Source of the DNA: Rhina ancylostomus
Lineage: Eukaryota
Assembly: GCA_030265395.1 (NCBI GenBank)
Contig: JARFYF010000001.1
Location: 35,989,176 to 36,053,175, forward strand
Length of the DNA stretch: 64,000 nucleotides
Direction of reading: 5' to 3'
Below the pieces are notes generated by a model that made no database searches, was not told where the DNA came from, and saw nothing but the letters and a program-made list of their open reading frames with translations. Both the position numbers and the translations under genes were made by a program. Shown here in pieces: positions 5,550 to 41,569 of the stretch. Each line of letters starts with the position of its first letter. Positions within the stretch are counted from its first letter, which is position 1.

Positions 5550-5754
5550 AGGCACAAGTAACTGCAGATGCTGGAATCTGGAGCAACAAATGAATTGTTG
5601 GAATAACTCAGTGGGTCAAGCAACATTTTGAAGGTAAAGGGATGATCAATGTTTCATGTCAAGACCCTACATCAGGACTAAAATGTTAACCATCCCTTTG
5701 CCTCCACAGATGCTGCTCGACCTGCTGGGTTATTCCAGCAATTTATATTTTGCT
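5550..5754. mobile_element. Penelope-derived fold-back element (older copy)
   Basis: actgcagatgctggaatctggagc...ctcagtgggtcaagcaacat and its inverse cagatgctgctcgacctgctg...ttccagc; degenerate hammerhead at 5645-5680 (minus). Confidence 0.75.
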
Positions 5755-9923: not shown

Positions 9924-10094
9924 CTCCAAGGTTGGCCTACTGCGGGGTTGTAAGTCGATGCATTCCTTTAATTCTTTTCTGAGCTGCCTCAGTTGATGGT
10001 CTTTATTTTCAATGTCAGTTTTAAGCTCTGTCTGTTTTTGCTGATAATCCTTTATCTGTTCTTTTAACCAGATGTTCGCAGCTACCAACTGTTC
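9924..10094 (-). CDS. TANK: TANK exon 5 (additional coiled-coil exon)
   Basis: tttcag|EQLVAANIWLKEQIKDYQQKQTELKTDIENKDHQLRQLRKELKECIDLQPRSRPTLE|gtaaga; 171 nt, phase 0 to 0, heptad-like E/K/Q/L-rich sequence. Confidence 0.85.
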
Positions 10095-10349
10095 CTGAAA
10101 GTATAAGGAAATAAAAAGCAACAGAAATCAATACATTAAGTAAGACAGCCACTTAGAGATAAAGGCCACCTTGCATATGTTGGAAATCTCCTTGGCACTG
10201 AAACCATTGGTCCTCTATCTTCATTAATTGTTAAGAGCAACAGAGGCAACACTGCAATTACTAGCCATGTTTTTAGTCTGTTTAGCAAATTGCTTGGCCA
10301 CAACTTCCTGCATAAACAAGCTCCAATCATGTGTCAGCAATAGCAAGAT

Positions 10350-10715
10350 ATAGCACCCTAATATCAGTTGAGAAGTTTGTAGGGTCAGGACCCACTCTGC
10401 TCATTTCCTGTGTTCAAGTCTCCAAGTTGCAGTACTAAGGAAGCATTGTTCAAAGAAAAGTGAAGATTTTTGGATGAGATATTAAACAGAGGTGCACACA
10501 GCTCTCCAAGTTGGACACAAATAAATTCAAGCCAAGAGCAGGGGGGTTCTGCCAGATAATATTTAATCAAAATCAATGCCTACTAAATCAGTACAATTAT
10601 TTCCTAGTTGTTTGTGTGACCCTGCTATGGGCAAATTGGTTGTTAAATTTCCTATAGCACAATTATGTCCAGTATTCAAAGGCACTTCAGTAGCGATAAA
10701 GTACTCCAGCAATCA
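10350..10715 (+). mobile_element. Ancient DeuSINE-like (SacSINE1/AmnSINE-type) SINE
   Basis: tgcagtactaaggg...tttggatgagatattaaac.gagg...tgtttgtg.ga.c.tgct.tgggcaaattgg.tg...tttcc resembles the recalled Deu-domain consensus. Confidence 0.6.
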
Positions 10716-10734
10716 TGAATGTCACCATATGAAC

Positions 10735-10870
10735 GGAGACACAGGAGACTGCAGATGCTGGAATCTGGAGCAAAAAAACAATCCGCTGGAAAAACTCAAT
10801 GGGTCAAGCAGCATTTATGGGAGGAAAGGAATAGTTGACATTTCAGGTCAAACCCTGCATCAGGATTCCA
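10735..10870 (-). mobile_element. Penelope-derived terminal-repeat fragment
   Basis: Same family as 5550-5754; minus strand reads CUGAUGC-AGGGUUUGACCU-GAAAUGUC. Confidence 0.75.
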
Positions 10871-11109
10871 AATGCAAGCTTGTTCTTTATTTTTTTTTGT
10901 AAAGATGACAATTATAAACATTGAAAATCTGAAGCATTTAGCTTTTATTGCAAACAATTCAATCTCATGCAAAGAATTACTATACATGAATTTTGTGACA
11001 ATAAAATGTACTCTTACTGGACAAGAAATATTTCATTCTTCACATATCTACATTGTGTTAGATGAGAAGATTTGGCCACATTATTCATGAAAAATTATAA
11101 TTTACAAAT

Positions 11110-12360
11110 AAAAGCAAAATTTGCTGGATGAGCTCAGCGGTCATGTAACATCAGTGAGGAGTGAAACAGAGGAAATGTTTCAAGCCAAGGGCCCTTCAAC
11201 AGGACTGAAAAGTGAAAAAACAACCCAAGCACCTTCAGTTGGAAGGGGAATGGTGCTGAAGAGAACAGAGGGAAAGTCTTTTACAGGGTGAGATTAAAAT
11301 AGTTGGGAAACAGTTATTTTAAAAATTAGCAGTTGGAGACAAAAAAGACAAAACACGGAAAAAGAGAGGTACAGCCACATCTTTGGAATAAGACAGAAAA
11401 AAACTTGGAATAATTATCTGAAAATTTTCAATCCAAACTAAATTCAGACAGCTTCAACATATCCAGGTGCAAGATGAGGGGCTGTTCCACAAACTTACAA
11501 TGGACATCATTGGTGCAACGTAGGATTCCAAAGACTAGAGAAGTTAGAATAAAAGTGGAACCATATGGGGTGTTCTGAAAAATGCATTTGGTTTCTCCAG
11601 TGTAGATAAAACCACACNNNNNNNNNNNNNNNNNNNNNNNNNNNNNNNNNNNNNNNNNNNNNNNNNNNNNNNNNNNNNNNNNNNNNNNNNNNNNNNNNNN
11701 NNNNNNNNNNNNNNNNNNNNNNNNNNNCATCTCCTGCAGTTGCCTGGGAAAGTGCTATGAGAAGGAGAGAGGTTGGTGGAGATGGGTGGACTAGGGAGTC
11801 ATGGAGGTAATGTTCTCTTTGGCATACGAAAAGGGAGGAGGGCAATAGGTATCTGGTGATCAAACCTGTTGGACGTGACAGGTTGGTGGAGTGGAACACA
11901 AGGACAAGGAGAACCCTGCATTCTGGCTGGGAGAGAGAAGGCGAGAGCAGAACTGCAGGAGAAAGTGGGTATATTTATTTGAAAGTCTTGTCATCTATGA
12001 TACAGGAAAAACCACAGTTTAAAAAAAAAGACATTTTTAAGTCTGGAAAGTCTCATCATCAGAACAGAAATGATAGTGATGGAGAAACTATAAGGGAGCA
12101 TGGGAGGTGGTGGTGTCAGTATAGTTGTGGGAGACAGAGGGCTTGTAATGGATGCCAGAAACTAACCAACCTCTGCACCCCTTCCCCCAAGATGCAGTTA
12201 GGCAGTCAAGAAATGAAAGGGAAGAACAAGATTGCCAGCAGAGGTCATGAAATTTGAGTTCTGTACGAGTGCAGGAAGCAGCACCAACAGAGTCTTCACT
12301 GCAGCAGAAAAAGAATTGAGGGAGGAGACCTAAACAGCATTGAAACAAAGACTGCTCTAC
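11110..12360 (-). mobile_element. Decayed Penelope-like element
   Basis: Terminal repeat at 11115-11210; minus-strand YTGETKC, KFVEQPLILHL and RT-thumb-like remnants. Confidence 0.7.
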
Positions 12361-12569
12361 CATCCTTCCCTTCCTCTTCCATTGCCTTTCAGCATCCCAA
12401 AGAGACTGTTTCCTCTATGATTGGTCCATGACACCTTCCCATGCCATTGCGGGAAATCCAAAACCTGCCCTTTTATTCCCTTCCCAACTCAGGTGTTTCA
12501 AAAAAGATGACCTTCTTATAGGCTAGCTAGCTGTAATAGCAAAATTGTTGTTACTCTTAAAGACGTTAT

Positions 12570-13545
12570 TGCTGTTAGAAAGTAATATCACATTTAGAAA
12601 GATTCAAGGTAATGAGGTAAAGTCAAGATAGCCTTCTGAAAGGGAGTTAATGTTTGACAAATTTATTGGAGTTCATTAAAGTAACAAGTGCTGTAGATAA
12701 AGGGGAACATGTGGATATATGAATTTTAAATTTCCAGAGGCATTTGATAAGATACCACATCAAAGGCTACTCTGTAAAATAAATGAAGATTGATATAGAT
12801 GGATATAAAATAAGTGGAGAAGATTGGCTGGCTAACAAGAACTGAAGGCAAAGATGGGTGCTTTACTGATTGGCAAGATGTAATGCATAGTGTACTCTAC
12901 TAATTGTTGCTGGGACCTCATTACAATTTCTATAAACACCTTGGATGAAATACCAAAAGTACAGTTACTACAATCACTGATAATTTCCTACCTATTGTTT
13001 TGTTTAATTGTGAAAAGAACATAAGGAGGTTGCAAGTAGATAGATTAAGAGAATAGCAAAGCTCTCACAAATGGANNNNNNNNNNNNNNNNNNNNNNNNN
13101 NNNNNNNNNNNNNNNNNNNNNNNNNNNNNNNNNNNNNNNNNNNNNNNNNNNNNNNNNNNNNNNNNNNNNNNNNNNATTATGATGAACTAAAATGCAAAAT
13201 TTTCTACGTTGGCAGGAAAAATTAAAAAGCACATTACCTAAACGGAGAACTCCGATGCAGGTGGATCTAGATGTCCTTGTGCAAGATTCGCAAAAACTTG
13301 TATACAAATACAACAAGCAATTAGTTTAAAATTAAGGGGGTCTCCATTTCAAACAGAGACAAGGGGATTTTTTTTTTGATTCAGGATGGTCAGGAATCTT
13401 TGGAACTCTCTTCCTCAAAGGATGGTAGAAGCAGTCTTCCAATATTTTATTTTAAGGCAGATGAAGACAGATTCTTGTGAAGCAAGGGGTTAAGAGGTTA
13501 ACGTGGATGGACTCCAATGCAGAATTGAGGTTACAATCAGATCAT
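12570..13545 (+). mobile_element. Decayed CR1 LINE 3' fragment
   Basis: CLTNLLEF, FQRAFDKIPHQRL, NLWNSLPQ; tail ttacaatcagatc..catg. Confidence 0.8.
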
Positions 13546-15567
13546 GGACAACCTCATATTTTCCCATTGGCCTTTCCATCTTTTTGCCCACTTCCTCAGC
13601 CTGTCTTTTTCCTTTTGCACATGCTATGTGTCCTTCTCACAACTTATTCTCCTACTTATCTTTGCATAATGAAAAAATCCAGGTAAAATACACTCTGTCC
13701 AAGTCATCAATGGTAAATACCCAAGGCTCAAGCAACAATCCCCACAAGATGAGCTCATTTATCACTACTCTGCTTTTGTTAGCTAACCAATCTTCCATTA
13801 TAAATATATTCCTCTTAATTCCATGAGCCCTTATTGTGAACGATAACCTTTTAAGTGACACTCTATTATGTGCCCTTTTAGAAATCCATCCAGTAGCTAC
13901 CCTTTATCTACCCTGCTTGCTATATCCTCAAAGGTCTTGAATAAAATGTCTAATACAACCTCATATCAAAAAACAATGCTAATTCTGCTTTAGAATTTAC
14001 ATATTAGAATTTTCCAAGTTTTCCAAGATTCTTAAATAATTGACTCTGGGTGGACTCCCAATACGTGACATTCGGTTTACTGGTCAACAGTTTCTTGCTT
14101 TCTCTTCCTTCTGTTCAGATTCTAGGGAATTTTGAAATATCAAAACCAATACAAGACACGTTATGGAATCTAGAATGCAAGGCATCACATCAGGAGGATT
14201 TGTCTGCTTTTAATCCCGTCAGTTTGCCCATTACTTTTTCTATAGCAATGCTGGGCACGATTGTGCCAATTCCAATCATCTGGCCAGAACTGCCATTGAA
14301 TGCCTCTGCCCATATGCACTCACTTGGGTTGGAATACGGAGGTTGATTTCACTGGCCTTATACACCCAGGAATTGGACCACAACATTTGGATGGCAAGAA
14401 TCATACCACAGAATCATTCATTGGACATAGCACAGAAAGCAGCCCTTCAGCTGAACAGGTCGGTGCCACTCTCTGCTGGAATAACTCTCCAGATTCATCC
14501 ACAGGCCCTTTCTTGATTACCTTGTAAGTTTTTCTCCACCATGTATTTAAACAGTTTCCTCTTGAAGGTCACAACTGAACTGCCTCCATCACATTCAGCA
14601 CATTCCATATTCCTTCCACATACTGCACAAATACTTTTCCTCTTAATGTTCTTTCACTTTATTGTATTGTATTCTTGTGTCCCAAAGGGAACAGCCTCCA
14701 CAATCTACTCTGTCCAGAATCTTCATCATTTTATATTCTTCCATCAAATCTCCTCTTAAGCTTCTCCTTGAAAACAAAACATTCCCAGCCTCTCTGATCT
14801 TTTCTTATAACTAGAGTCCCTCATCCCAGGAACCATTTTAATAAATATTTCCTGGATCGCCTCCAATGCCTTCACATTCTTCAACAACACAGCAACCAAA
14901 CTTGAACACAATACTAAACTAATGTTAATGTTTTTCCAAAGTTCAGCATAACCTCCCTGCTTTTATTTTCTCTGCCATTATTGATAAAGGCCAGATGGTA
15001 TACATCTTATGAACTACTTCCTCAACTTGTCCTGACACTTTCAATGATTCATGCACACATACCTTCTGCTCCTGCACTCCTTTTTGAACAGTATCGTTTA
15101 TTCTATATTGCCTCTCATTCTTAAAACCAAAATGCAACACTTTGCATTTCTAAGCATTACACTTCTGTCCATTCCACTACCTCGTTTATCCAACTGCAAT
15201 CTATCATCACCATCTTTGCAGTTCACCTGAATGCTGTTTTGTGTCATCCACAAGCTTGGAAACTGTAGCAAGCACCACCCACATCTACACAATTAATACA
15301 GATTGTAAAAACAATTGCCCAAACACTGATCCTGAGCGAGTGCCACTACATTCCCTCTGGACTATTACTTGGCCAACTTCTCATCCATGCTTTCTATGTC
15401 CTTTCGTGACGCATGCTTCAATTCTGCTGATAAACCTGTTCTGTGGCACCATAACAAAAGCCTCTGGAACTTCATGTACACCACATCAAATGCTATCAAA
15501 TCTATCTGTTGCCTCATCAAAATATTCTCTCAGTTTGTTTAAACACATTTTTCACTCAACAATTAGA

Positions 15568-16005
15568 GCATTCTGACTGGTTGTATCACAGCCTGGTATG
15601 GAGGCTCCAATGCACAGGATCACAAGAGGCTGCAGAGGGTTGTAGATCAGCCAGTTCCATCACAGGCACAATCCTCCCCGCTATCGAGGACATCTTCAAC
15701 AGGCAGTGCCTTAAGAAGGCAGCATCCTTCACTAAGGACCCTCACCATCCGCGACATGCCCTCTTCTCATTTCTACCATCGGGGAGGAGGTACAGGAGCC
15801 TGAAGACTCACACTCAACAATTTAGGAACAGCTTCTTCTCCTCCACCATCAGATTTCTGAACAGTCTATGAACATGATCTTTTTTTTTTGCACTGTTTAT
15901 TTATTTTGTAATTTATAGTAATTTTAATGTTTTTACACTGTATTACTACCGCAAAACAACAAATTTTATGACATACAAGTCAGTGATAATAAACCTGATT
16001 CTGAT
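15568..16005 (+). mobile_element. 5'-truncated Rex1-like LINE 3' end
   Basis: CLKKAASFTKDPHHPRHALFSFLPSGRRYRSLKTHTQQFRNSFF C-terminus; AATAAA plus (CTGATT)n tail. Confidence 0.85.
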
Positions 16006-16147
16006 TTCTCCATGCTGTCAGTTTTCTTAAATATCCCATGTCTTAACTATCTCTTCCCTCACTATTGCTATGGAAATAATGTTTTCCTGCAAAACGACAG
16101 ATGCAAAGTACTTATTTAGTGCCTCAAAGGTGCCCTCAGAATCTTTA

Positions 16148-16228
16148 TTTTAAATTTTATTTACAGTGTGGTAACAGGCCCTTCCGGCCCAACAAGTCCA
16201 CACCGCCCATTTTAAACCCCAAATTAAC
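16148..16228 (-). mobile_element. SINE fragment running into a gap
   Basis: ttttatttacagtgtggtaacaggcccttccggcccaacaagtcc resembles the reverse of a V-SINE-like body and tail. Confidence 0.55.
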
Positions 16229-16339
16229 NNNNNNNNNNNNNNNNNNNNNNNNNNNNNNNNNNNNNNNNNNNNNNNNNNNNNNNNNNNNNNNNNNNNNNNN
16301 NNNNNNNNNNNNNNNNNNNNNNNNNNNNTCGAATCCACA

Positions 16340-16734
16340 GGTTCTTTCAGGAGTCCAGGAATGAGTTGAAAACAACTTGGTGCTTCGCAAAGTTTTATTG
16401 GGAAAGGTTAAAACAAAGAAACAGTCACATAGCACATGGCACTAGCTTTGATAAGCTGAGACAAAGGGAACAATAGGCAAGCTCAGGCCAGGGGGAAGGA
16501 AGAGCCAGAGAGAGATTAACAAAAGGCGACACCTTTTATACCCAAGATAAGAGATGCTCCTTACCTAACAATAGTCCAATCAGGAAACTATTAGATGCTT
16601 GTGGCCAAACCAACCAATGAAAATACCACATATTCACCTGATGGACGAACCAATAAGCTAGTAAGTGGCCATTCCTTGTGCAGCCACTCAAGGTGTCTTA
16701 AACACTATGCATGTTAAAAAACTAATTAAGAACA
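16340..16734 (-). mobile_element. Putative solo LTR
   Basis: Terminal inverted gttctt/aagaac with TG start on minus; several CCAAT boxes (16576-16655), TATAAAAG (16540-16533), then AATAAA (16399-16394), in U3-R-U5 order. Confidence 0.6.
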
Positions 16735-17304
16735 GTCGAATCCAACACTCGTGATCAGCCTAGTTCACACTGGTATTTACAATCCAATACCCATCTATGC
16801 AGCCTTTTTTTCATACTTTATCATCCTCATTATTTCTTTTGTCATTCTGAGTACTCTGCATTTTGTTCTCCTTCTTTTGTTTCTCATGAGAATATGCCTC
16901 AAATGTACCTGAACTATCTCTTCCTCAATCACAGCTTGTTGTTCTACAACAGATTTCTGTCTGTCGACAATTGCTTCCAATTTATCAATGGACCACATCC
17001 AGTCTCATTTAATTGAAAATGGCCTCCTCCTTTTGTTTTACTTTGGATTGCTCCTTCTCCTTTACTCTACCTAACCTGAATTTCATAATGTTATGATCAC
17101 CATCTCCTAAATGTCTCCCTATCAAAACTTGGTGCACTTGACCTACCTCATTCCCCAGAACTAGATCCTATTATACTCCTTCCTTGGTGGACCAGAAACA
17201 TAATACTCTGGAAAATTATCCTGGACACATTTTACAAATCATTCATTCTTTCTGGTCTTAACACTAGTACTACCTCACTTTTAAATTGGGAGAATGAAAG
17301 TCCT

Positions 17305-20300
17305 AGCGAGTGGATGTTGTTGAGAAGACTTAAAAGGAGCTGAGCTATAGCGGAGCAGCCATTTTGCAGTGGCCATTGTGAGAGTGGCTGATGTTGAGGT
17401 CAAAATGCTGTGTTTGAGGTGCAAATGTAAGTGGCTTTATCTCGAGAGGCTTTGGCAAGGAGACAGAGCAGTGATTTTGAGATGGCAATCGTATGCTCCT
17501 TCTGCAACATGTGGAAGATGAGGGAAACTTCCAGTCTCCCTGGTGACTATACCTGTGGGAAGTGTGTCCAGCTGCAGCTCCTGACTGACTGCATTGAGCA
17601 TCTGGACCTGCGGTTGGACCCACTCAGGAGCATTCATGATGCTGAGAGCATCACACACAAGAGCTTTAGTAGTGAGGTGGTCACACCTAATAGGCAGGCA
17701 GCAGGTAGTTGGGTGACCACCAGGAGAGGTAGAGGGTGCAGTATTCCCCTGTAGCCATTCTCCTCACTAACAAGTATATCATTTTGGATATTGTTTGGGA
17801 TGGGGTGGGGGGCAAATATGCCCTTTCAAAGGAGAGCAGCAGCAGTAGCCAGGCCTGTGGCACAACAACTAGCTCTGATGCACAGGAGAGGGTGGAGACA
17901 AGTAGAGGTTTAGTGATAGAGGTGACTGATAGTGAGGGGGATAGATATGAGATTCTGTCGCTGCGAGCAAGACTCCAGGATAGTATGTTGCCTCCTAGGC
18001 ACCAGAGTCAAGAATGTCTGAGTGATTGCAGAACGTTCTCAAGCGGGACTGTGAGTACATATTGGTACCTATGACATAGGTAGAAAGAGAGATGAGGTCC
18101 TACAGTGTGAATATAGGGAATTAGGCAGAAGGTTGAAAGACAAATCCTCAAGGGTTGTAATCTTGGAATTACTCCTGGTGCAACACACAGTGAGTGTAGG
18201 AATGGGAGTTTCAGCAGATGAATGTGTGGCTGAGAAGCTGGTGCAGGAGGAAAGGATTCAGGTTTCTGGACCATTGGGATCTCTTCTGGGGCATAGGAGA
18301 CCTGTACAAAAGGGATAGGTTGCCCTCACACTGGTGGCGGAACCAATTGACTGGTGGGGAGATTCGCTGGAGCTACTTTGAAGGGTTAAGACTCATCCGG
18401 CAGGGTGGTGGGAACCAAAGTAGCGGGGTGGCAGATGAGCGAGTTGAGGCAAATGTAGAAGTTAAAGCAAGTTCAATAGGCAGGACAAGGTTGTGAAGAA
18501 GGTCTGAAAGACAAACCTGCATTTATTTTAATGCAAGAAGCCTGACAGGCAAAGCAGATAAACTCAGGGCACGGGACTGGGATTTTCCAGCTATTACAGA
18601 AACAGGGTTGAAGGATGGGCAAGACTGGCAGTTCATCGACCCGGGATACAGATGCTGCAGGCGTGATACAGGTGGAGTCAAGAGAAGAAGGGCAGTCATG
18701 TTTTTGATTAGGGAGAACATAATGGGAATACTTAGAGAGGGCATTACTGGGGGATCGTCCAATGAGACCATATGGGTGGTACTCAGAAATAAGGACATAA
18801 TCAGCTTGATATGATTGTACTAGAGGCCTCCCAACAGTCAGGGGGAATTAAAGAAGCAAATCTGTAGGGAAGTTGTAGATAGCTTTAAGAATAATAGGGT
18901 TGTAATAATAGGTGATTTTAACTTCCCTAATTTCAACTGGAACTGCCATAGTGCTAAGGGCTTGGATGGGGCAGAATTTGTTATGCGTGTCCTGGAAAGT
19001 TCTGTCATAAAATATGTAGATGTCCTACTAGAGAGGGGGCAACATTTGACCTCCGATTGGGAAATGAGGTAGGGCAAGTGACTGAAGTGTCATTGGGGGA
19101 GCACTTTGGGACCAGTGACCATGGTTCTATTAGTTTTAAAACAGTTAATGAAAAAGATAGGACTGGTCCACAAGTTAAAAAGTCCTAAACTGGGACAAGG
19201 CAAATTTTGACAGCATTAGACAGGAACTTTCAGAAGTTGATTCAGAAAATCTGTTTGCAGGGAAAGGGATGTCGAGCAAGTGGGAGGCTTTTAAAAGTTA
19301 GATAGGGAGAGTTAAGGGTCTGTTAGAGTGAAGGGCAAGGATGATTAGGGAACCCTAGTTGATGTAGAGGCTCTGGTCAGGAAAAAAAAGGAATGTGTCA
19401 GGTATAGGCAGCTGGGATCAAGTGAATCCCTTGAGGAGTATGAGGGATGCAGGAGTAAACTTAAGAGGGAAATCAGGAAGGCAAAATGAGAACATGACAT
19501 AGATTTGGCAGATAAGGAAAATGAGGATCCCAAGAGATTCTACAAGCACATTAATAGCAAAAGGTTAACTAGGGAGGGAATAGGACCCCTGAAGGATCCA
19601 AGTGGTTATCTATGTGTGGAGCTACAGGAGATGCACAAGATTTTAAACGAGTACTTCATATCTATATTTACCATGGAGCTCACGGTAGTTAGGGAATTCA
19701 CGAAAGAAAATCGTGATGTCTTGAAACATATCCATATTACAAAAAAGTGCTGGTGGTTTTAAAGCATATATTGGTGGATAAATTCCCAGGGCCTGACCAG
19801 TTGTACCCTAGGATATTGTGGGAAGCAAGGGAAGAAATTGCTGGGGCCCCGGTAGAAATAATTGTAACACGATTAGCCCTGGGTGAGGTACCGGAAAACT
19901 AAAGGGTGGCTAATATTTTGTCTTTATTTAAGAACAGCTGAAAGAACAAGCCAAGGAACTACAGTCCGGTAAGCTTTATATCAGTGGTGGTAAAGTTACT
20001 GGAGAGGATTCTGAGAGGCAGGATCTACCTGCATTTGGAAAGGCAAGGACTGATTAATGATAGCAAGGCTTTGATTGTAGGAAACTCTCATGTATTTGAC
20101 TGAGTTTTTTTTATTGAAGAGGTGACCAAAAGGATTGAATGGCAGGGTGGTAGACATCATCCACATTGACTTTAGCAAGGTCTTTGACAAGGTCCTGCAT
20201 GTCAGGCTGGTTTGAAAGGTTAGATCATATGGAATCTAGGATGAAGTCATCTATTGGATACAAAATTGGCTTGGTGAAAGAAGTCAGAGGGTGGTCATGG

Positions 20301-21310
20301 AGAGATTTTTTTTGCACATTGAGGCCTGTGACCTGTAGTGTTTGGCATATACAGTAAATTAACAATTTGGATGAGAATGTAGGTAGCATGGTAAGTAAAT
20401 TTGCAGATGACACCAAAATTAGTGGTATTATGGACAGTGAAGAAGGTTATCTAAGATTACAACAAGATCTAGATGAACTGGGAAAGTGAGCCAAGGAATG
20501 GCAGATGAAATTTAACTTTGACAAGTGCAAAGTGTTTCATTTTGATTAGTTAAACCAGGGCAGGACATGCACAGTAAGTGGCTGGCTCCTAGAGAGTACT
20601 GTACAACAGAGAGATTTAGGGATACAAGTACATAGTTCCCTGAAAGTGGCGAAACAGGTAGACAGGGTGGTGCAGAAGATGTTAGGCATGCTTGCCTTCA
20701 TCAGTCAGGGCACTGAGTAAAAGAGTTAAGGCATTATGTTACAGCTATACAAGATGTTGGCAAGACCACACTTGGGAGTATTGTGTGTCGTTCTGGTCAA
20801 CTAGCTATAGGAAGGATGTTATTAAGCTGGAAAGGTCACAGGAAAGATTCACAAAGATGTTACTGACACTGGAGGGCTCGAGCTAATAAGGAGAGACTAG
20901 ATAGGCTGGGGCTTTTATCCGTGGAGCATCGGAGGCTGAAGGTTGACCTTATACAGAACCAAAAGAGGCATAGATAAGGTGAATGATCAGACTTTTTCCT
21001 CAGGGTAGGAGCCTAAAACTCAAGGGCATAGATTTAATGTGAAAGGGGAAAAGATTAAAAAGGGACCTGGGGCAAGTTTTTCCACACAGAGGGCAGTGGG
21101 TATATGGAATGAGCTGCCAGAGGAAGTGGTAGAGGTGGGTACAATTACAACGTTTAAAAACATTGAGACAGGTATATGGATAGAGAAGGTTTGGGGGATA
21201 AGGGCCAAATACAGGCAAATAGGGCTAGCTCAGGTAGGTAACTTGGTCAGAATGGACGAGAGGCCAAAAGGGCCTGTTTCTGTCCTGTATAACTCTATGA
21301 CTCTAAGACT
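17305..21310 (+). mobile_element. Near full-length decayed CR1 LINE
   Basis: ORF1 remnants (CSFCNMW...YTCGKC zinc motif; esterase-like MNVWLRSWCRRKGFRFLDHWDLFW); ORF2 endonuclease (VIIGDFNFP) and RT (DFSKVFDKV, SKFADDTK); FSTQRAVGIWNELP near the end; (CTCTATGA)-type tail at ~21293-21310. Many stops and frameshifts. Confidence 0.93.
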
Positions 21311-21700
21311 CCATTATAACTACCTGTACTTTTTGCACTTCTCTAAGTTTCCTGCATGTTTGCCCCACCATATTTCTCCCACTCCTCAGCCTAAAGAATA
21401 TACTCAGGAGTGTATTGCTCCCTCTACTGTTTGTTAGAACTAAATAAATAAATTGTCTTTGACCTCTGCTAAATCCTTTCTTCCCTGCACTGTGATACTC
21501 TCATTTACCAAAACTGCTATCCCTTCTGCTTGCTTTCCTTCCCTACCTTTCCAGAACACCTTGTATCCAGGAACATTTAATGCTCAGTCCTGACCCTTTT
21601 TGAAAGACATTTCAGTTACTGGCACATCATCTTCCCACACAGCTATCTGTGTCTTCACCAATATACCACACTCTATGCAATCAAGTACATGCATAAACCA
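21311..21700 (-). mobile_element. 5' continuation (endonuclease region) of the old CR1 at 14410-17304
   Basis: Minus strand ends ...gtagttataatgg (VVIMG), which rejoins ggactttc (DF) at ~17303. Confidence 0.7.
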
Positions 21701-21731
21701 AATTTAGTTGTTATTTCATTTCCATTTTCAA

Positions 21732-21885
21732 TTAGATGAAAAACACTATGATGCTGGAGGAACTCAGCAGGCCAGGCAGCATCTGTGGACAAAAGCTGGC
21801 AGTCAACGTTTCAGGTCAGGATCCTTCTTCAGGACTGAAGATAGGAAAAGGGGAGGCCCAATAGATAGGAGAGAAAAGCAGAGCA
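21732..21885 (-). mobile_element. Penelope-derived terminal-repeat fragment carrying the intact hammerhead
   Basis: Reverse complement of the repeat at 24695-24855. Confidence 0.85.
21800..21837 (-). ncRNA. Minimal type I hammerhead ribozyme motif in a Penelope-derived repeat
   Basis: Minus strand reads CAGUC-CUGAAGA-AGG(AUCCUGA)CCU-GAAAC-GUU-GACUG: 5-bp helix I, intact CUGANGA and GAAA boxes, helix II, palindromic ACGU helix III, GUU cleavage triplet. Confidence 0.75.
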
Positions 21886-21974
21886 ATAAGCTCCAGCAAA
21901 ATTCTTGCATTTATTTTATCTAATGTGAACTGTTCTCATTTCCTTTTGCTTATTTCCCTTTATCTTATTACTTT

Positions 21975-22210
21975 CTATAATGAGCCTGCTCATTACTGTC
22001 TGCCAGCCATTTTCCCTGTGCTTGCTCACACTTGAACTGCAGCATGACCACCTCTCTAAACGTGACACCCACCAAGTTCTCAGCCTTGTGGATGTGCGAT
22101 AATGACTCCAGCTGTTGCTTCAACTCTGAAACCCAGAGGTAAATTTCTTGCAGCTGGAGATATTTCATGTAATGTGGCCTCCAGAAGCGTCCACAAGAAC
22201 CCACAAAGAT
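21975..22210 (-). mobile_element. CR1 ORF1 fragment
   Basis: KYLQLQEIYLWVSELKQQLESLSHIHKAE..TFREVV parallels ORF1 of the CR1 at 17431-17754. Confidence 0.6.
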
Positions 22211-23709
22211 ACATTCCCTTCAGACGAGCTGCCCTGCCATTCCTTAACTTCACAGACTGTAATTTGTGAAGCAGAAATTAGACAATAGAAATTATTCACC
22301 AGGCACTCAATCAGCTTGCTGCACTTAGCCACATCATACTTTCAAACTACTACAGGTCCCACTCTCTGCTAACGTCTTGGAACCTTTGTTCTGTTGATGA
22401 GAACTTGGTGGACAGCAAGTTTAGAAAGGTGATCACTCTGCATCTTAAGCATCCTCAGGTGGCATAGTCCTGAAGTACAACCTGGAACATTCCTAACAGA
22501 AAGTAAAGACAGTGCAGAGCTTTGCTTTGGTCAAAGAGGCAAAGCAGTTTAATAGTTTTTAAATGTTTCAAACATTGATATTTAAAACTATTAAAATGTG
22601 TTATTAGAAACTGAAGATTTTGTAAAAGAAAAGATTCAAACACTCAACAATTATTAAAAATAGTGAATGAAATTAAAATAACAATTTCACATATTCTGCA
22701 GGATGAGGATCCTCACTCTTATCAACGGGGTCACTGATTCTATGACAACAGATCTAATGTGGCATTGGATTGGAGAAATGATTCCCCATCATAACATGGA
22801 GAGTCTGAGCAAGACTGAGCCCTGCACCTTGACTCCACGTGGAGTCCAGTGATGCAAGGTATTACAAACTTGGCAAGATATTTCACCAGTGTAGCAGCAG
22901 GTCCATTTAAGTCCAAGATCTATTTCTATATGAATGGCTGAATGCCAATGGTTTCTTTCAGAATCATCTGTCACAACCAAGCAGATTTGGCTCAATTATT
23001 GTTGTAAGTTCCTCCCTCCTTTCTGTGTGACCTAAGGGGCATGACTGCCTCCTGGATCATTTGTTCAGTTAACTACCTAATACTTGCCTGCTTTCCCTCA
23101 TCTATCATCATGACTCCAACTCAGACTGAAGCTCAACAACTTTAAGTTCCTCAGAACAAAGACACTTACTGAAAAATTAATTGCTGGGGATCTCACTGAT
23201 CTCCATCAACTCCCACATCTTGCAGCTTTAAAACTTCACCTCCCCTGCTGTCTCAATAAAATTTTGATTTATATTTTAAACTCATTTGGGCTAATTATTA
23301 ATCTTACTTGTTTTTTTTTGAAAACAATAGGATGTATATTAAAAATTAAATGGTCTGAACTTGAATTACCAGTCTTTTCTGAGCTTTAAATTAAAAGTCA
23401 AATATGTTGTCTTAAGCTAATATGAACAGGTATTGTAAGTATTGGACACAGGACAAGAGCATCTCTTCCCCTCTGCACCTACTTCCCATGATCACATTTC
23501 CGTTCTTTTGCACTCTGTTGCTCCTTGGTAGCTGTGTTGTCTGACAGCTCCAAACAACTTTCAGGCACCAAGGTGAGCATTGGTCAATGAATTAACAACA
23601 TAGCAGGCATTCTTCCACCCATTCCAATAGCTGTCCAATCATTTCCAGAGTGCTGCATCTCATCATTCTCACTCCTCTGACAACAAGAGAAGACAGTACA
23701 AGATGAACA

Positions 23710-24883
23710 GCTGAAAAACACTACGATGCTGGAAGTACTCAGCAGGCCAGGCAGCATCCGTGGAGAAAAGNNNNNNNNNNNNNNNNNNNNNNNNNNNNNN
23801 NNNNNNNNNNNNNNNNNNNNNNNNNNNNNNNNNNNNNNNNNNNNNNNNNNNNNNNNNNNNNNNNNNNNNNGTTGTCAATGGGTTTGTAGAAGACGTCGGT
23901 GGATAAGGAATCTACTGAGATGGAGATGGAAAGATTGAGGAAGGAGAGAGTGGTGTCAGAGATAGTACAAGTGAACTGGAAAGCTGGGTGAAAATTTATG
24001 GTGAAATTTATGAAACTGTTGAGTTCCACATGGGTACAAGAGGTGGCACCAATGCAGTCGTTGATATAGCAGAGAAAGGTGTTGAGGAATGGGGCCAGAG
24101 CGGGCTTGGAACAGAGACTGAACATAGCCAACGAAGAGGCAGGCATAGCTGGGACCCATAGCTATGCCCTTGGTCCTTAGAAAGTGAGAGGAATTGAAAG
24201 TGAAGTTGTTTAGGGCGAGGATAAGTTCAGGCAGGCAGAGGAGAGTGAAGGAACCTGGTTCTGTCGCTGGTCAAGAAAGAAGCAGAGGGCTGTGAGGCCG
24301 TCATGATGAGGAATGGAGGTATATGGGGAATGGAGGTATATAGGGACTGGACATCCATGGTGAAGATGAAGTTGTGTGTACTGGAGAACTTAAAGCTATG
24401 GAAGAGTTGGGGAACATATGATGTGTCAGGGACGTAGGTGAGTAGGGATTGGACTGGGGGGGGGGCAGATGGAACAGGATGGTGTCCAGGTATGAGGTCC
24501 ATGGGGCAAGAGCACGTGGAGACAACAGGTCTGCTGGGACAGTCCATCTTGTGGATTTTGGGGAGGAGATAGAAGCGGGCAGTCCTTGGTTGTGAGACTA
24601 TCATATTGGCAGCTGCAGAGAGGGCAGGGGTGGGGAGATCTCCTGAGGTGATGAGGTCAGTGATGGTGCAGGAGATCACTGCTATTTTGCCCACCTATCA
24701 CTGCTCTGCTTTTCCCTTCTATATATCGGGTTTCCCTTTTTTCTATCTTCAGTCCTGAAGAAGTCCTGACCTGAAACATTGACCGCCTGCTTTTCTCCAC
24801 TGGTGCTGCCTAACCTGCTGAGTTCCTCCAGCATCATAGTGTTTTTTATCTAGATTCCAGCATCTGCAGCCCTTTGTTTCACT
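23710..24883 (-). mobile_element. Penelope-like element fragment with inverted terminal repeats
   Basis: RT motifs PRTARFYLLPKIHK...RPVVS, FTMDVQSLYTSIPH, MGPSYACLFVGY; inverted aaaaacac.acgatgctgg..ctcagcagg arms; candidate TSD agatgaaca at 23701-23709 and 24884-24892. Confidence 0.88.
24750..24785 (+). ncRNA. Minimal hammerhead motif, slightly degenerate, in a Penelope terminal repeat
   Basis: CAGUC-CUGAAGA-AGUCCUGACCU-GAAAC-AUU-GACCG; core boxes intact, but helix III reads ACAU and helix I has one mismatch. Confidence 0.55.
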
Positions 24884-24959
24884 AGATGAACAAGTCCTTG
24901 TAACCCACCATCACTGTGGACCTGCAGATGTTACAGCATTGTCCTTTCAACCTACTTCC

Positions 24960-40145: not shown

Positions 40146-40716
40146 TTCCCCTCATCGTTTCCCTCGGCAGAGAACTTCTAAGCGGTGTTAACAATTACAA
40201 CTTAGTAAATGGGAGCGGAAGAGGCCATTCCGGCACTCGACCAAGTGGCAAAACAGTAATTTTAGTTAATTTTCCAAATGCACTTTATGCAACCATAAAC
40301 CGTAAAAACTGACGAGAGAGCAGTTTGCAAGGATGATCTGAGACATACGTTGCCCGTTGTGTTTCCGATCACATGAATGGGTCCCGTCCCTCCCCTCCCC
40401 GCCCCGCAGCTGCTGANNNNNNNNNNNNNNNNNNNNNNNNNNNNNNNNNNNNNNNNNNNNNNNNNNNNNNNNNNNNNNNNNNNNNNNNNNNNNNNNNNNN
40501 NNNNNNNNNNNNNNNNGTTGAAGAGCGCCCTTCACTAGGCCTCAGCAAGTCACCCGGGACCCGACAGCAGTTAAAGGGCAGCGCTCTCCCCTTCCCCACC
40601 CCCAACCCCCGGCAGTGGGGCTGGCCCCAGACCTGGGAGCCCGGGTGCCCGCTCCCTTGGGCCCGGCTCCTCGACACTTTCGGGCCCTAACCGGTCACGG
40701 TCGCCGCCAGACTCAC

Positions 40717-40785
40717 CAACATGAGAGGCCCGGGTCCCGGCGGAGCTGCGGCGTCGGACCCGCTGGCGCTGCTGATTTTTGCCGG
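40717..40785 (-). other. TANK: TANK first (mostly untranslated) exon; 5' end approximate
   Basis: Strong donor TTG|gtgagt at 40716-40711 inside the only CpG island, just downstream of CCAAT/kB/ETS motifs. TSS cannot be determined from sequence. Confidence 0.75.
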
Positions 40786-40827
40786 CGCCGCTCATTGGCT
40801 GCTCGCTGACGGCCGGGAGAAGAGTTC

Positions 40828-40851
40828 GGAAGTCCCCAGTGGGGAATCCCC
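40828..40851. promoter_or_regulatory. Tandem NF-kB (kB) sites
   Basis: GGGGACTTCC on the minus strand (40837-40828) and near-palindromic GGGGAATCCCC (40841-40851); both fit GGGRNNYYCC and lie 3 bp apart. Confidence 0.8.
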
Positions 40852-41320
40852 GGCTTCTGAACTCGCTGACTTCCGCCTTGCTGCTTTCAGCCGCCCGAGA
40901 GAAGGAAGCTGGGCCGCACCCTCCGTCCCACCGCTTAACGGGGCCATTCCCCAGCTGACCAGCAACACAGGTTCCATGAGCCGAGAAGCAGGTGCACAAC
41001 TTGAGTTTTCTCTTACTGGACCATTGAAGTGGCAGGGGTTGATTGCTCCAGGGCAACTGATAAAAATGATCAACACGTTTCCTATTTTAGGACATCCATT
41101 AATATAAGATGATCCAGTCAATGAGAAAGATACCAAAATCCCAACGTTCCTCCAAAGCAAAAGGATATCTTCCCAATTACATGGCACTAAGTTACCTACA
41201 AGTCATTTTAGATCGTTTGTATTGGTTTAGTATTGTCATATGTATTGAGAGACAGTGAAAAGCTTTTGTTTTGCATGCCATCCAGGCATATCATGCCATA
41301 CATAATTACATCAAGGTAGT

Positions 41321-41569
41321 TGAAAAACACGATGATGCTGGAGAAAACTCAGCAGGCCAGGCAGCATCTGTGGAGAAAAGCAGGTGGTCAACGTTTTGGG
41401 TCAGGACCCTTCTTTGAAGAATCCACTTTGAAGAAGTTTTCTTCTTCTATCCTGACCCGAAACATTGACCGCCTGCTTTTCTCCACAGATGCTGCCTGGC
41501 CTGCTGAGTTTTCTCCAGCATCATCGTGTTTTTCATCTAGATTCCAGCATCTGCAGTCCTTCGCTTCTC
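41321..41569. mobile_element. Young Penelope-derived fold-back element with 14-bp TSD
   Basis: ~86-bp near-perfect inverted arms (41321-41406 and 41450-41535); exact direct repeat tacatcaaggtagt at 41307-41320 and 41570-41583. Confidence 0.9.

Follow-up and report, generated by a model that had tools for sequence, protein, structure and literature searches.

The window, the whole 64,000-nt stretch of DNA analysed here, carries coding exons of TANK on its minus strand, placed by tblastn near 33609, 33154, 27859, 10094, 7719, 4461 and 1441. The exon at 1441-779 matches 16 proteins among 283 candidates, 15 of them named TANK and one unnamed; its best match is a ray TANK protein with 95% identity. 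A PDB search with the TANK exon gave no match. The hammerhead motif described below lies on the same strand as the gene and is thus in the sense orientation, so the initial annotation, which named TANK as the host and placed the motif in its sense strand, is right on both points.

The intron that holds the motif (Table 1) is bounded by two coding exons that are joined on one contig in 4/4 runs of a related organism; these runs belong to one study, their RNA status is a tool's guess, and one is flagged as probably DNA. Within the intron, the motif lies 5.9 kb past the donor, and its predicted cut site 11.7 kb before the 3' splice site. It had been called the longest intron of TANK, which does not hold: the last TANK exon is found at L193:2493-2326, about 28 kb past the window's last TANK exon, so the last intron measures about 28 kb and exceeds the motif intron (17.6 kb). 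The number given to the motif intron, 4, is correct if there is one 5' non-coding exon, for which a GC-rich island at 40500-41000 is a candidate site; in a model with a micro-exon at 32465-32439 it becomes intron 5. The island probably marks the promoter of TANK.

The closest ray TANK model contains this micro-exon of 9 codons, which the window matches exactly on the minus strand. The same model omits the exon of the TBK1-binding domain (4461-4345), which is present in the window; the discrepancy reflects either an alternative isoform or a model error. A run of 100 N at 832-931 interrupts the large coding exon, and since related TANK proteins have no insertion there, it looks like an assembly gap with overlapping ends. 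A further candidate exon near 22450, based on a loose peptide match, was rejected: no TANK protein aligns to it and a relative's contigs skip it.

The repeat insertion that carries the motif is probably older than some species splits. X5 contigs span both insertion junctions and agree exactly with the flanks, though X5 may be the window's own source. One X6 contig, with 12 differences in 484 positions, reaches 31 letters past the 3' junction. In X7, end distances give a weak hint that the 5' junction is crossed as well. The relatives' contigs break inside the repeat, short of the orthologous core.

Table 1. Features of the motif intron and of related repeat pieces in the window
Feature	Position	Strand	Basis or remark
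TANK coding exon upstream of motif intron	27705..27859	-	tblastn and joining contigs
TANK intron holding the motif	10095..27704	-	GT..AG; 17,610 nt nominal, N runs included
TANK coding exon downstream of motif intron	9924..10094	-	tblastn and joining contigs
Minimal type I hammerhead motif	21800..21837	-	direct reading and descriptor scan
Helix I 5' arm	21837-21833	-	motif part
CUGAAGA box	21832-21826	-	motif part
Helix II region	21825-21813	-	motif part
GAAA box	21812-21809	-	motif part
CGUU	21808-21805	-	motif part
Helix I 3' arm	21804-21800	-	motif part
Truncated terminal-repeat (pLTR) fragment carrying the motif, assigned to a Neptune-type Penelope-like element	21733..21887	-	family homology
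Predicted competing hairpin, UCCU.UCUUCA with UGAAGA.AGGA	21822..21846	-	folding; pair probabilities 0.81-1.0
Sense-strand 3' end of motif repeat	23709..23770	-	hammerhead position falls in adjoining N run
Frameshifted RT remnant of Penelope-like family, separate insertion	23880..24694	-	similarity to genome relatives
Antisense copy of motif repeat, 87.6% identical, own core broken	24702..24852	+	blastn; 2.8 kb upstream in TANK pre-mRNA
Inverted GIY-YIG endonuclease remnant	25028..25384	+	58% identity to L081 endonuclease
Second, older antisense copy, broken core	27232..27317	+	blastn
Only other readable sense core in TANK part of window	5646..5682	-	broken: A9, helix II and palindrome changed

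Sequence and structure of the hammerhead motif

The minus strand from 21837 to 21800 holds a 38-nt minimal type I hammerhead motif. The earlier reading of these letters is confirmed, together with the 5-bp helix I, both boxes, the ACGU palindrome and the GUU site, where the cut is predicted at 21805/21804. The motif shares with published minimal hammerhead ribozymes (min-HHRs) the CUGANGA and GAAA boxes, a U16.1-H17 site, type I closure by helix I and a palindromic 15.2-16.2 stretch (ACGU) without loop 3. It lacks another of their hallmarks, an extra nucleotide between A9 and 10.1 plus a G10.1-C11.1 pair. There is no helix III stem-loop, and helix I has no loop or bulge for tertiary contacts.

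In helix II the copy departs from its description. When the 38 nt are folded alone, the minimum-energy form (-6.1 kcal/mol) combines the 5-bp helix I with a 3-bp AGG/CCU helix II, as reported earlier; this helix II is shifted by one base against the family register. At its base the copy has a G-U in the family register and, in the shifted register, an A-U with no extra nucleotide. The word "intact" was an overstatement, given two helix II substitutions relative to the family majority. The folding z-score of the isolated motif is only -0.59.

In the window the motif is the sole hammerhead-like match of a descriptor scan. Order-3 Markov simulations of the window (n=100) gave eight loose matches and none as strict as the motif, and the looser core pattern alone was seen in 4/100 shuffles. 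The search with hammerhead models that had been proposed as a check divides accordingly: the descriptor scan recovers the motif, but the Rfam hammerhead models give no match at either threshold, a result that is uninformative for minimal motifs. Against Rfam as a whole, the window has no match at the gathering threshold, and near the motif there is a single unrelated chance match.

A truncated end of a Penelope-like element

The motif forms the middle of a 155-nt truncated pLTR fragment. Homology stops at 21887 and 21733, and other family copies run further on both sides. The fragment ends carry a 4-nt ATTG as a possible target-site duplication, which is weak and may be chance. Genome-wide, exact matches number 2,118 for a 28-nt pattern of the motif and 4,796 for the 33-nt downstream flank, the reversed control being 0 in each case; motif density is 0.96 per Mb. 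A 221-nt query gave 1,749 candidates, and the 40 scored non-self matches are all 90-94% identical, 39 of them covering about 150 nt. Summed contig depth is about 1e6 over the repeat and about 5 in the flanks, figures that were not taken as a copy number.

Parent elements were sought in 20 genome stretches bearing reverse transcriptase (RT), and three of them tie the repeat to Penelope-like elements (PLEs). In L096 the RT, the endonuclease (EN) and then the motif-type repeat follow each other on one strand, with an N run between endonuclease and repeat. L081 has the end of an endonuclease, next a sibling repeat carrying its own hammerhead and then a 738-aa RT frame, and L097 is a tandem ending in the repeat. 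The parent family thus has an RT followed by a C-terminal GIY-YIG endonuclease with CC..H..H (CCHH). Pfam RVT_1 is found in 2/3 RT frames tested (E 4.6e-5, below the cut-off), and GIY-YIG in the endonuclease is at the cut-off. The linker joining RT to EN reads C-X4-C-xx-C in L081 and has a degenerate form in L096; as described in the available text of Craig et al. (2021, PMC8557442), a CX2-5CxxC linker marks Neptune and Nematis and is absent in Penelope/Poseidon. As judged from sequence, the motif fragment is the truncated terminal repeat of a Neptune-type PLE, where the choice of Neptune over Nematis would rest on these motifs and on the reported vertebrate range. The initial annotation had proposed a Penelope-type minimal type I hammerhead in need of a partner, and L096, L081 and L097 show that origin.

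L081 (G000:C2762:1-3287) is a short unplaced contig in which the uninterrupted RT frame stands behind a full endonuclease end and pLTR, which suggests that its element belongs to a younger subfamily than the window's. A majority sequence for a second subfamily was not obtained, as only seven copies were available and most were of the first subfamily. The sibling repeat of L081 differs at N7 and loop 2, yet its boxes and helix II stem are retained, a hint of selection on parent elements.

The window contains 12 family fragments by blastn. The stretch 23709-25384 is a decayed Penelope-like insertion in which the RT remnant is adjoined by an inverted repeat end from 24702 to about 24880 on the plus strand. 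Pfam gives no match to the window's frameshifted RT and endonuclease remnants, whose identity comes from genome relatives. The sense repeat end at 23709-23770 makes a cis sense partner possible 1.9 kb upstream of the motif, its core within the N run; within the TANK part of the window, no readable intact sense partner was found. Just past the GC-rich island, a head-to-head fold-back pair of the motif repeat with broken cores occupies 41317-41539.

Decay of the copy and predicted folding

Decay was assessed in 95 distinct copies, picked by the downstream flank only from the 4,796 matches and all located in the first 33 Mb of C1. Of these, 48 were kept, some of them starting just 5' of the core, and 47 were dropped: N in the motif removed 20, indels 5, and truncation or rearrangement 22. 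In the family majority, A9 is followed by an extra A, helix II has 4 bp with G10.1-C11.1 as its opening pair, and helix I contains an A-C mismatch; the extra A occurs in 46/48 copies, G10.1 in 43/48 and C11.1 in 33/48. Helix I pair 4, in 26 copies, is A-C in 15/26, A-U in 4/26, G-C in 3/26 and another mismatch in 4/26.

Measured against this majority, the window copy is ordinary. It differs at 4/42 motif positions, where the family mean is 4.6, and the whole fragment has 10 differences in 153 nt, four of them at CpG. C11.1 has changed to T, as in 11/48 copies, so G10.1-C11.1 is now G-U; position 10.3 is A, which leaves an A-C mismatch and two Watson-Crick helix II pairs in the family register. 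A C-to-T change at a CpG created the fifth pair of helix I, and five pairs are present in 7/48 copies. As neither register offers the extra nucleotide together with G10.1-C11.1, the copy is filed as a decayed descendant and not as an intact member of the class. Loss of G10.1-C11.1 and a GUU site both lower hammerhead cleavage; the literature search found no published figures for the cost of either.

Across the 48 copies the family cores decay at background rate. Core positions carry 25/480 substitutions (5.2%), unconstrained positions 32/480 and downstream positions 35/567, the two neutral sets thus standing at 6.2-6.7% (Fisher p 0.41 for core vs unconstrained, 0.59 for core vs downstream); helix II has 18/336 and CpG positions 88/288. 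The core rate is slightly below background, and with the modest power of 48 copies from one contig arm this is compatible with weak selection. The core is whole in 21/48 copies, core plus palindrome in 8/48, G10.1-C11.1 as well in 4/48 and full helix II too in 2/48. Core and palindrome are retained together at a frequency of 0.17, as against 0.19 expected from independent sites, so that an intact-looking intronic copy is to be expected in about one of six full-register copies. As a family average, the test speaks for the family and not for any single locus.

Predicted folding differs between the isolated motif and the motif in its context. For the isolated 38-mer, the hammerhead fold is predicted to make up 33% of the ensemble; the active dimer is calculated at 0.9 kcal/mol above two monomers (3.2 for the family majority) and at 7.5 kcal/mol above the best dimer. 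A hybrid dimer of the window copy with a majority copy is placed 2.8 kcal/mol above the monomers. In context, the competing hairpin (Table 1) is predicted to bury the CUGAAGA box and to abolish both helix I and the shifted helix II, leaving a hammerhead-like fraction of 4e-5 for the element and of 1e-4 for a 251-nt context. With flanks the active dimer is expected 15 kcal/mol above two monomers; dimer cleavage is thus predicted to be feasible for the isolated 38 nt and unfavourable with flanks. The family majority with flanks is also predicted to be shut (hammerhead-like fraction 2e-6). Since the parent was presumably functional, equilibrium folding may be misleading here.

The antisense copies would offer a second route to sequestration. 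The copy at 24702-24852 is predicted to form a duplex of about 150 bp with the motif fragment (-247 kcal/mol), and the older one at 27232-27317 a duplex of -137 kcal/mol; both energies leave loop cost and kinetics out of account, and the first, with its loop of 2.8 kb, also disregards proteins and the competing neighbour of that antisense copy at 23770.

The hairpin also appears as a family trait. The upstream flank of the family is complementary to its own CUGAAGA box, with a hairpin probability above 0.5 in 13/26 flank-keeping copies, and the box is predicted to be paired in the family-majority sequence as well. Readable family sequence 5' of helix I is retained in 26/48 full-register copies, and most of the others start a few bases from the core. 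Among the family copies L101-L190, these start points form a truncation hotspot that coincides with the hairpin, which in the window lies at 21846-21822. The hairpin may have served the parent element as an inbuilt off state, or it may be a place where truncation and fold-back are favoured.

Consequences for TANK and comparison with known systems

With high probability, the motif is an inherited ribozyme from a PLE end, in a 155-nt fragment; its decay is likely neutral, and it is predicted to cut TANK pre-mRNA either not at all or without effect. Following the literature model, the parent element would have cleaved its tandem transcripts by means of a double hammerhead, and the window copy would retain its boxes by chance, as about one in six full-register copies do. 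In nascent TANK RNA, the box may pair with its upstream flank, or the fragment with an antisense copy transcribed earlier. Transcription proceeds at 2-3 kb/min, which puts synthesis of the acceptor 4-6 min later than that of the motif; with box or fragment sequestered, the helix III dimer would fail to form during the minutes until the intron is complete, and TANK would be spliced normally. From the density of 0.96 per Mb, a few hundred sense intronic copies may be expected genome-wide by chance, so one in TANK needs no special explanation.

An improbable variant of this account is that the passenger copy cleaves occasionally, paired either with the sense copy near 23.8 kb, provided that the core of that copy is intact, or with family copies in other transcripts, while splicing completes and no selection acts. 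Intact boxes and palindrome would permit this, as would the correct fold of the isolated motif, the small predicted cost of the hybrid dimer, thousands of potential partners and the sense repeat end 1.9 kb upstream. It has to contend with the hairpin and antisense duplex predicted in context, with the lack of G10.1-C11.1 in either register and with the scarcity of competent partners, only 8/48 copies. Even tandem dimers are low in activity: in vitro, a minimal monomer is reported not to cleave and dimers to cleave at a low level, as far as the available text of two studies goes (PMC4209133, PMC6765202).

Co-option, in which cleavage of nascent TANK RNA tunes the splicing or output of this immune adaptor as in the intronic hammerheads of amniotes, is very unlikely. 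Sense orientation inside TANK, chance changes that completed helix I and provided another 3-bp form of helix II, and an insertion apparently common to at least one relative are all in keeping with it, and domesticated intronic hammerheads have been reported (PMC6155905, available text). Yet the divergence is ordinary (10/153, with CpG-type changes), the motif has neither the helix III nor the tertiary contacts of the amniote intronic ribozymes, it is predicted to be shut in context, and hundreds of sense intronic copies would arise by chance. Cleavage by itself need not matter for the host: hammerhead-cut reporter introns were still spliced efficiently, and only a fast HDV ribozyme blocked splicing (available text of PMC2995048, citing Dye 2006 and Fong 2009). 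The earlier proposal that self-cleavage could affect TANK processing is therefore unsupported, in view of ordinary decay, a damaged helix II, predicted sequestration and the lack of a readable intact sense partner.

A more elaborate and just as doubtful version holds that chance decay re-registered this copy into a hammerhead that folds better than its parent, through its full 5-bp helix I and new 3-bp helix II, and that it would act as a cis double hammerhead with the sense copy 1.9 kb upstream; TANK RNA would be cut when hairpin and duplex are opened, for example by editing or helicases in the antiviral response, an early ribozyme domestication in an immune gene of cartilaginous fish. If true, a minimal hammerhead that depends on dimers would for the first time have been shown acting on a pre-mRNA of its host, and the path leading from a transposon ribozyme to a regulator of genes would become testable. 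A chance arrangement of letters, to which the missing Rfam match and the low z-score might point, has next to no probability after 0/100 equally strict simulations and is refuted by thousands of homologous copies tied to a PLE.

The neutral passenger reading, as found, is of little consequence for TANK: the motif is likely an inert passenger of a known kind, and the ray joins the vertebrates whose PLEs scatter minimal hammerheads. No literature joining hammerhead, Penelope and cartilaginous fish was found, nor any on a TANK intronic ribozyme in sharks, in a search that left most subscription papers outside. The main text of a 2026 retrozyme preprint, as available, contains neither "shark" nor "cartilaginous", and two supplement files of PMC4209133 contain no shark or skate term. 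The minimal-hammerhead family of PLEs may thus be undescribed in cartilaginous fish.

The closest relatives are the min-HHRs of PLEs, of which about 4,000 are counted in coelacanth and about 9,000 in Xenopus tropicalis (Cervera and de la Pena 2014, PMC4209133, in the available text). The system described here shares with them type I topology, a helix I of 4-5 bp, the absence of helix III or loop 3, the palindromic 15.2-16.2 stretch, the location in a pLTR and dispersal as thousands of single copies; the extra nucleotide after A9 and the G10.1-C11.1 pair are found in the family majority too. It differs in its host, a cartilaginous fish, which that text does not name, and in a 4-bp helix II in the family, and the window copy further lacks G10.1-C11.1 and one more helix II pair.

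The coding parents resemble the EN+ Neptune/Nematis elements described in the available text of PMC8557442, with a GIY-YIG C-terminal to the RT, a CX4CxxC linker and CC..H..H in the endonuclease, a partial pLTR tandem, heavy 5' truncation and inverted truncated copies (L081, L096, L097; 23.7-25.4 kb). Unlike those coding elements, the TANK-intron fragment is a non-coding scrap. With the amniote intronic hammerheads (RECK and others; PMC6155905, available text) it shares type I topology, sense orientation, a long host intron and a likely retroelement origin. Those ribozymes, in contrast, are conserved across amniotes and have tertiary contacts, whereas the motif in TANK is minimal, one of thousands, and bears no sign of constraint.
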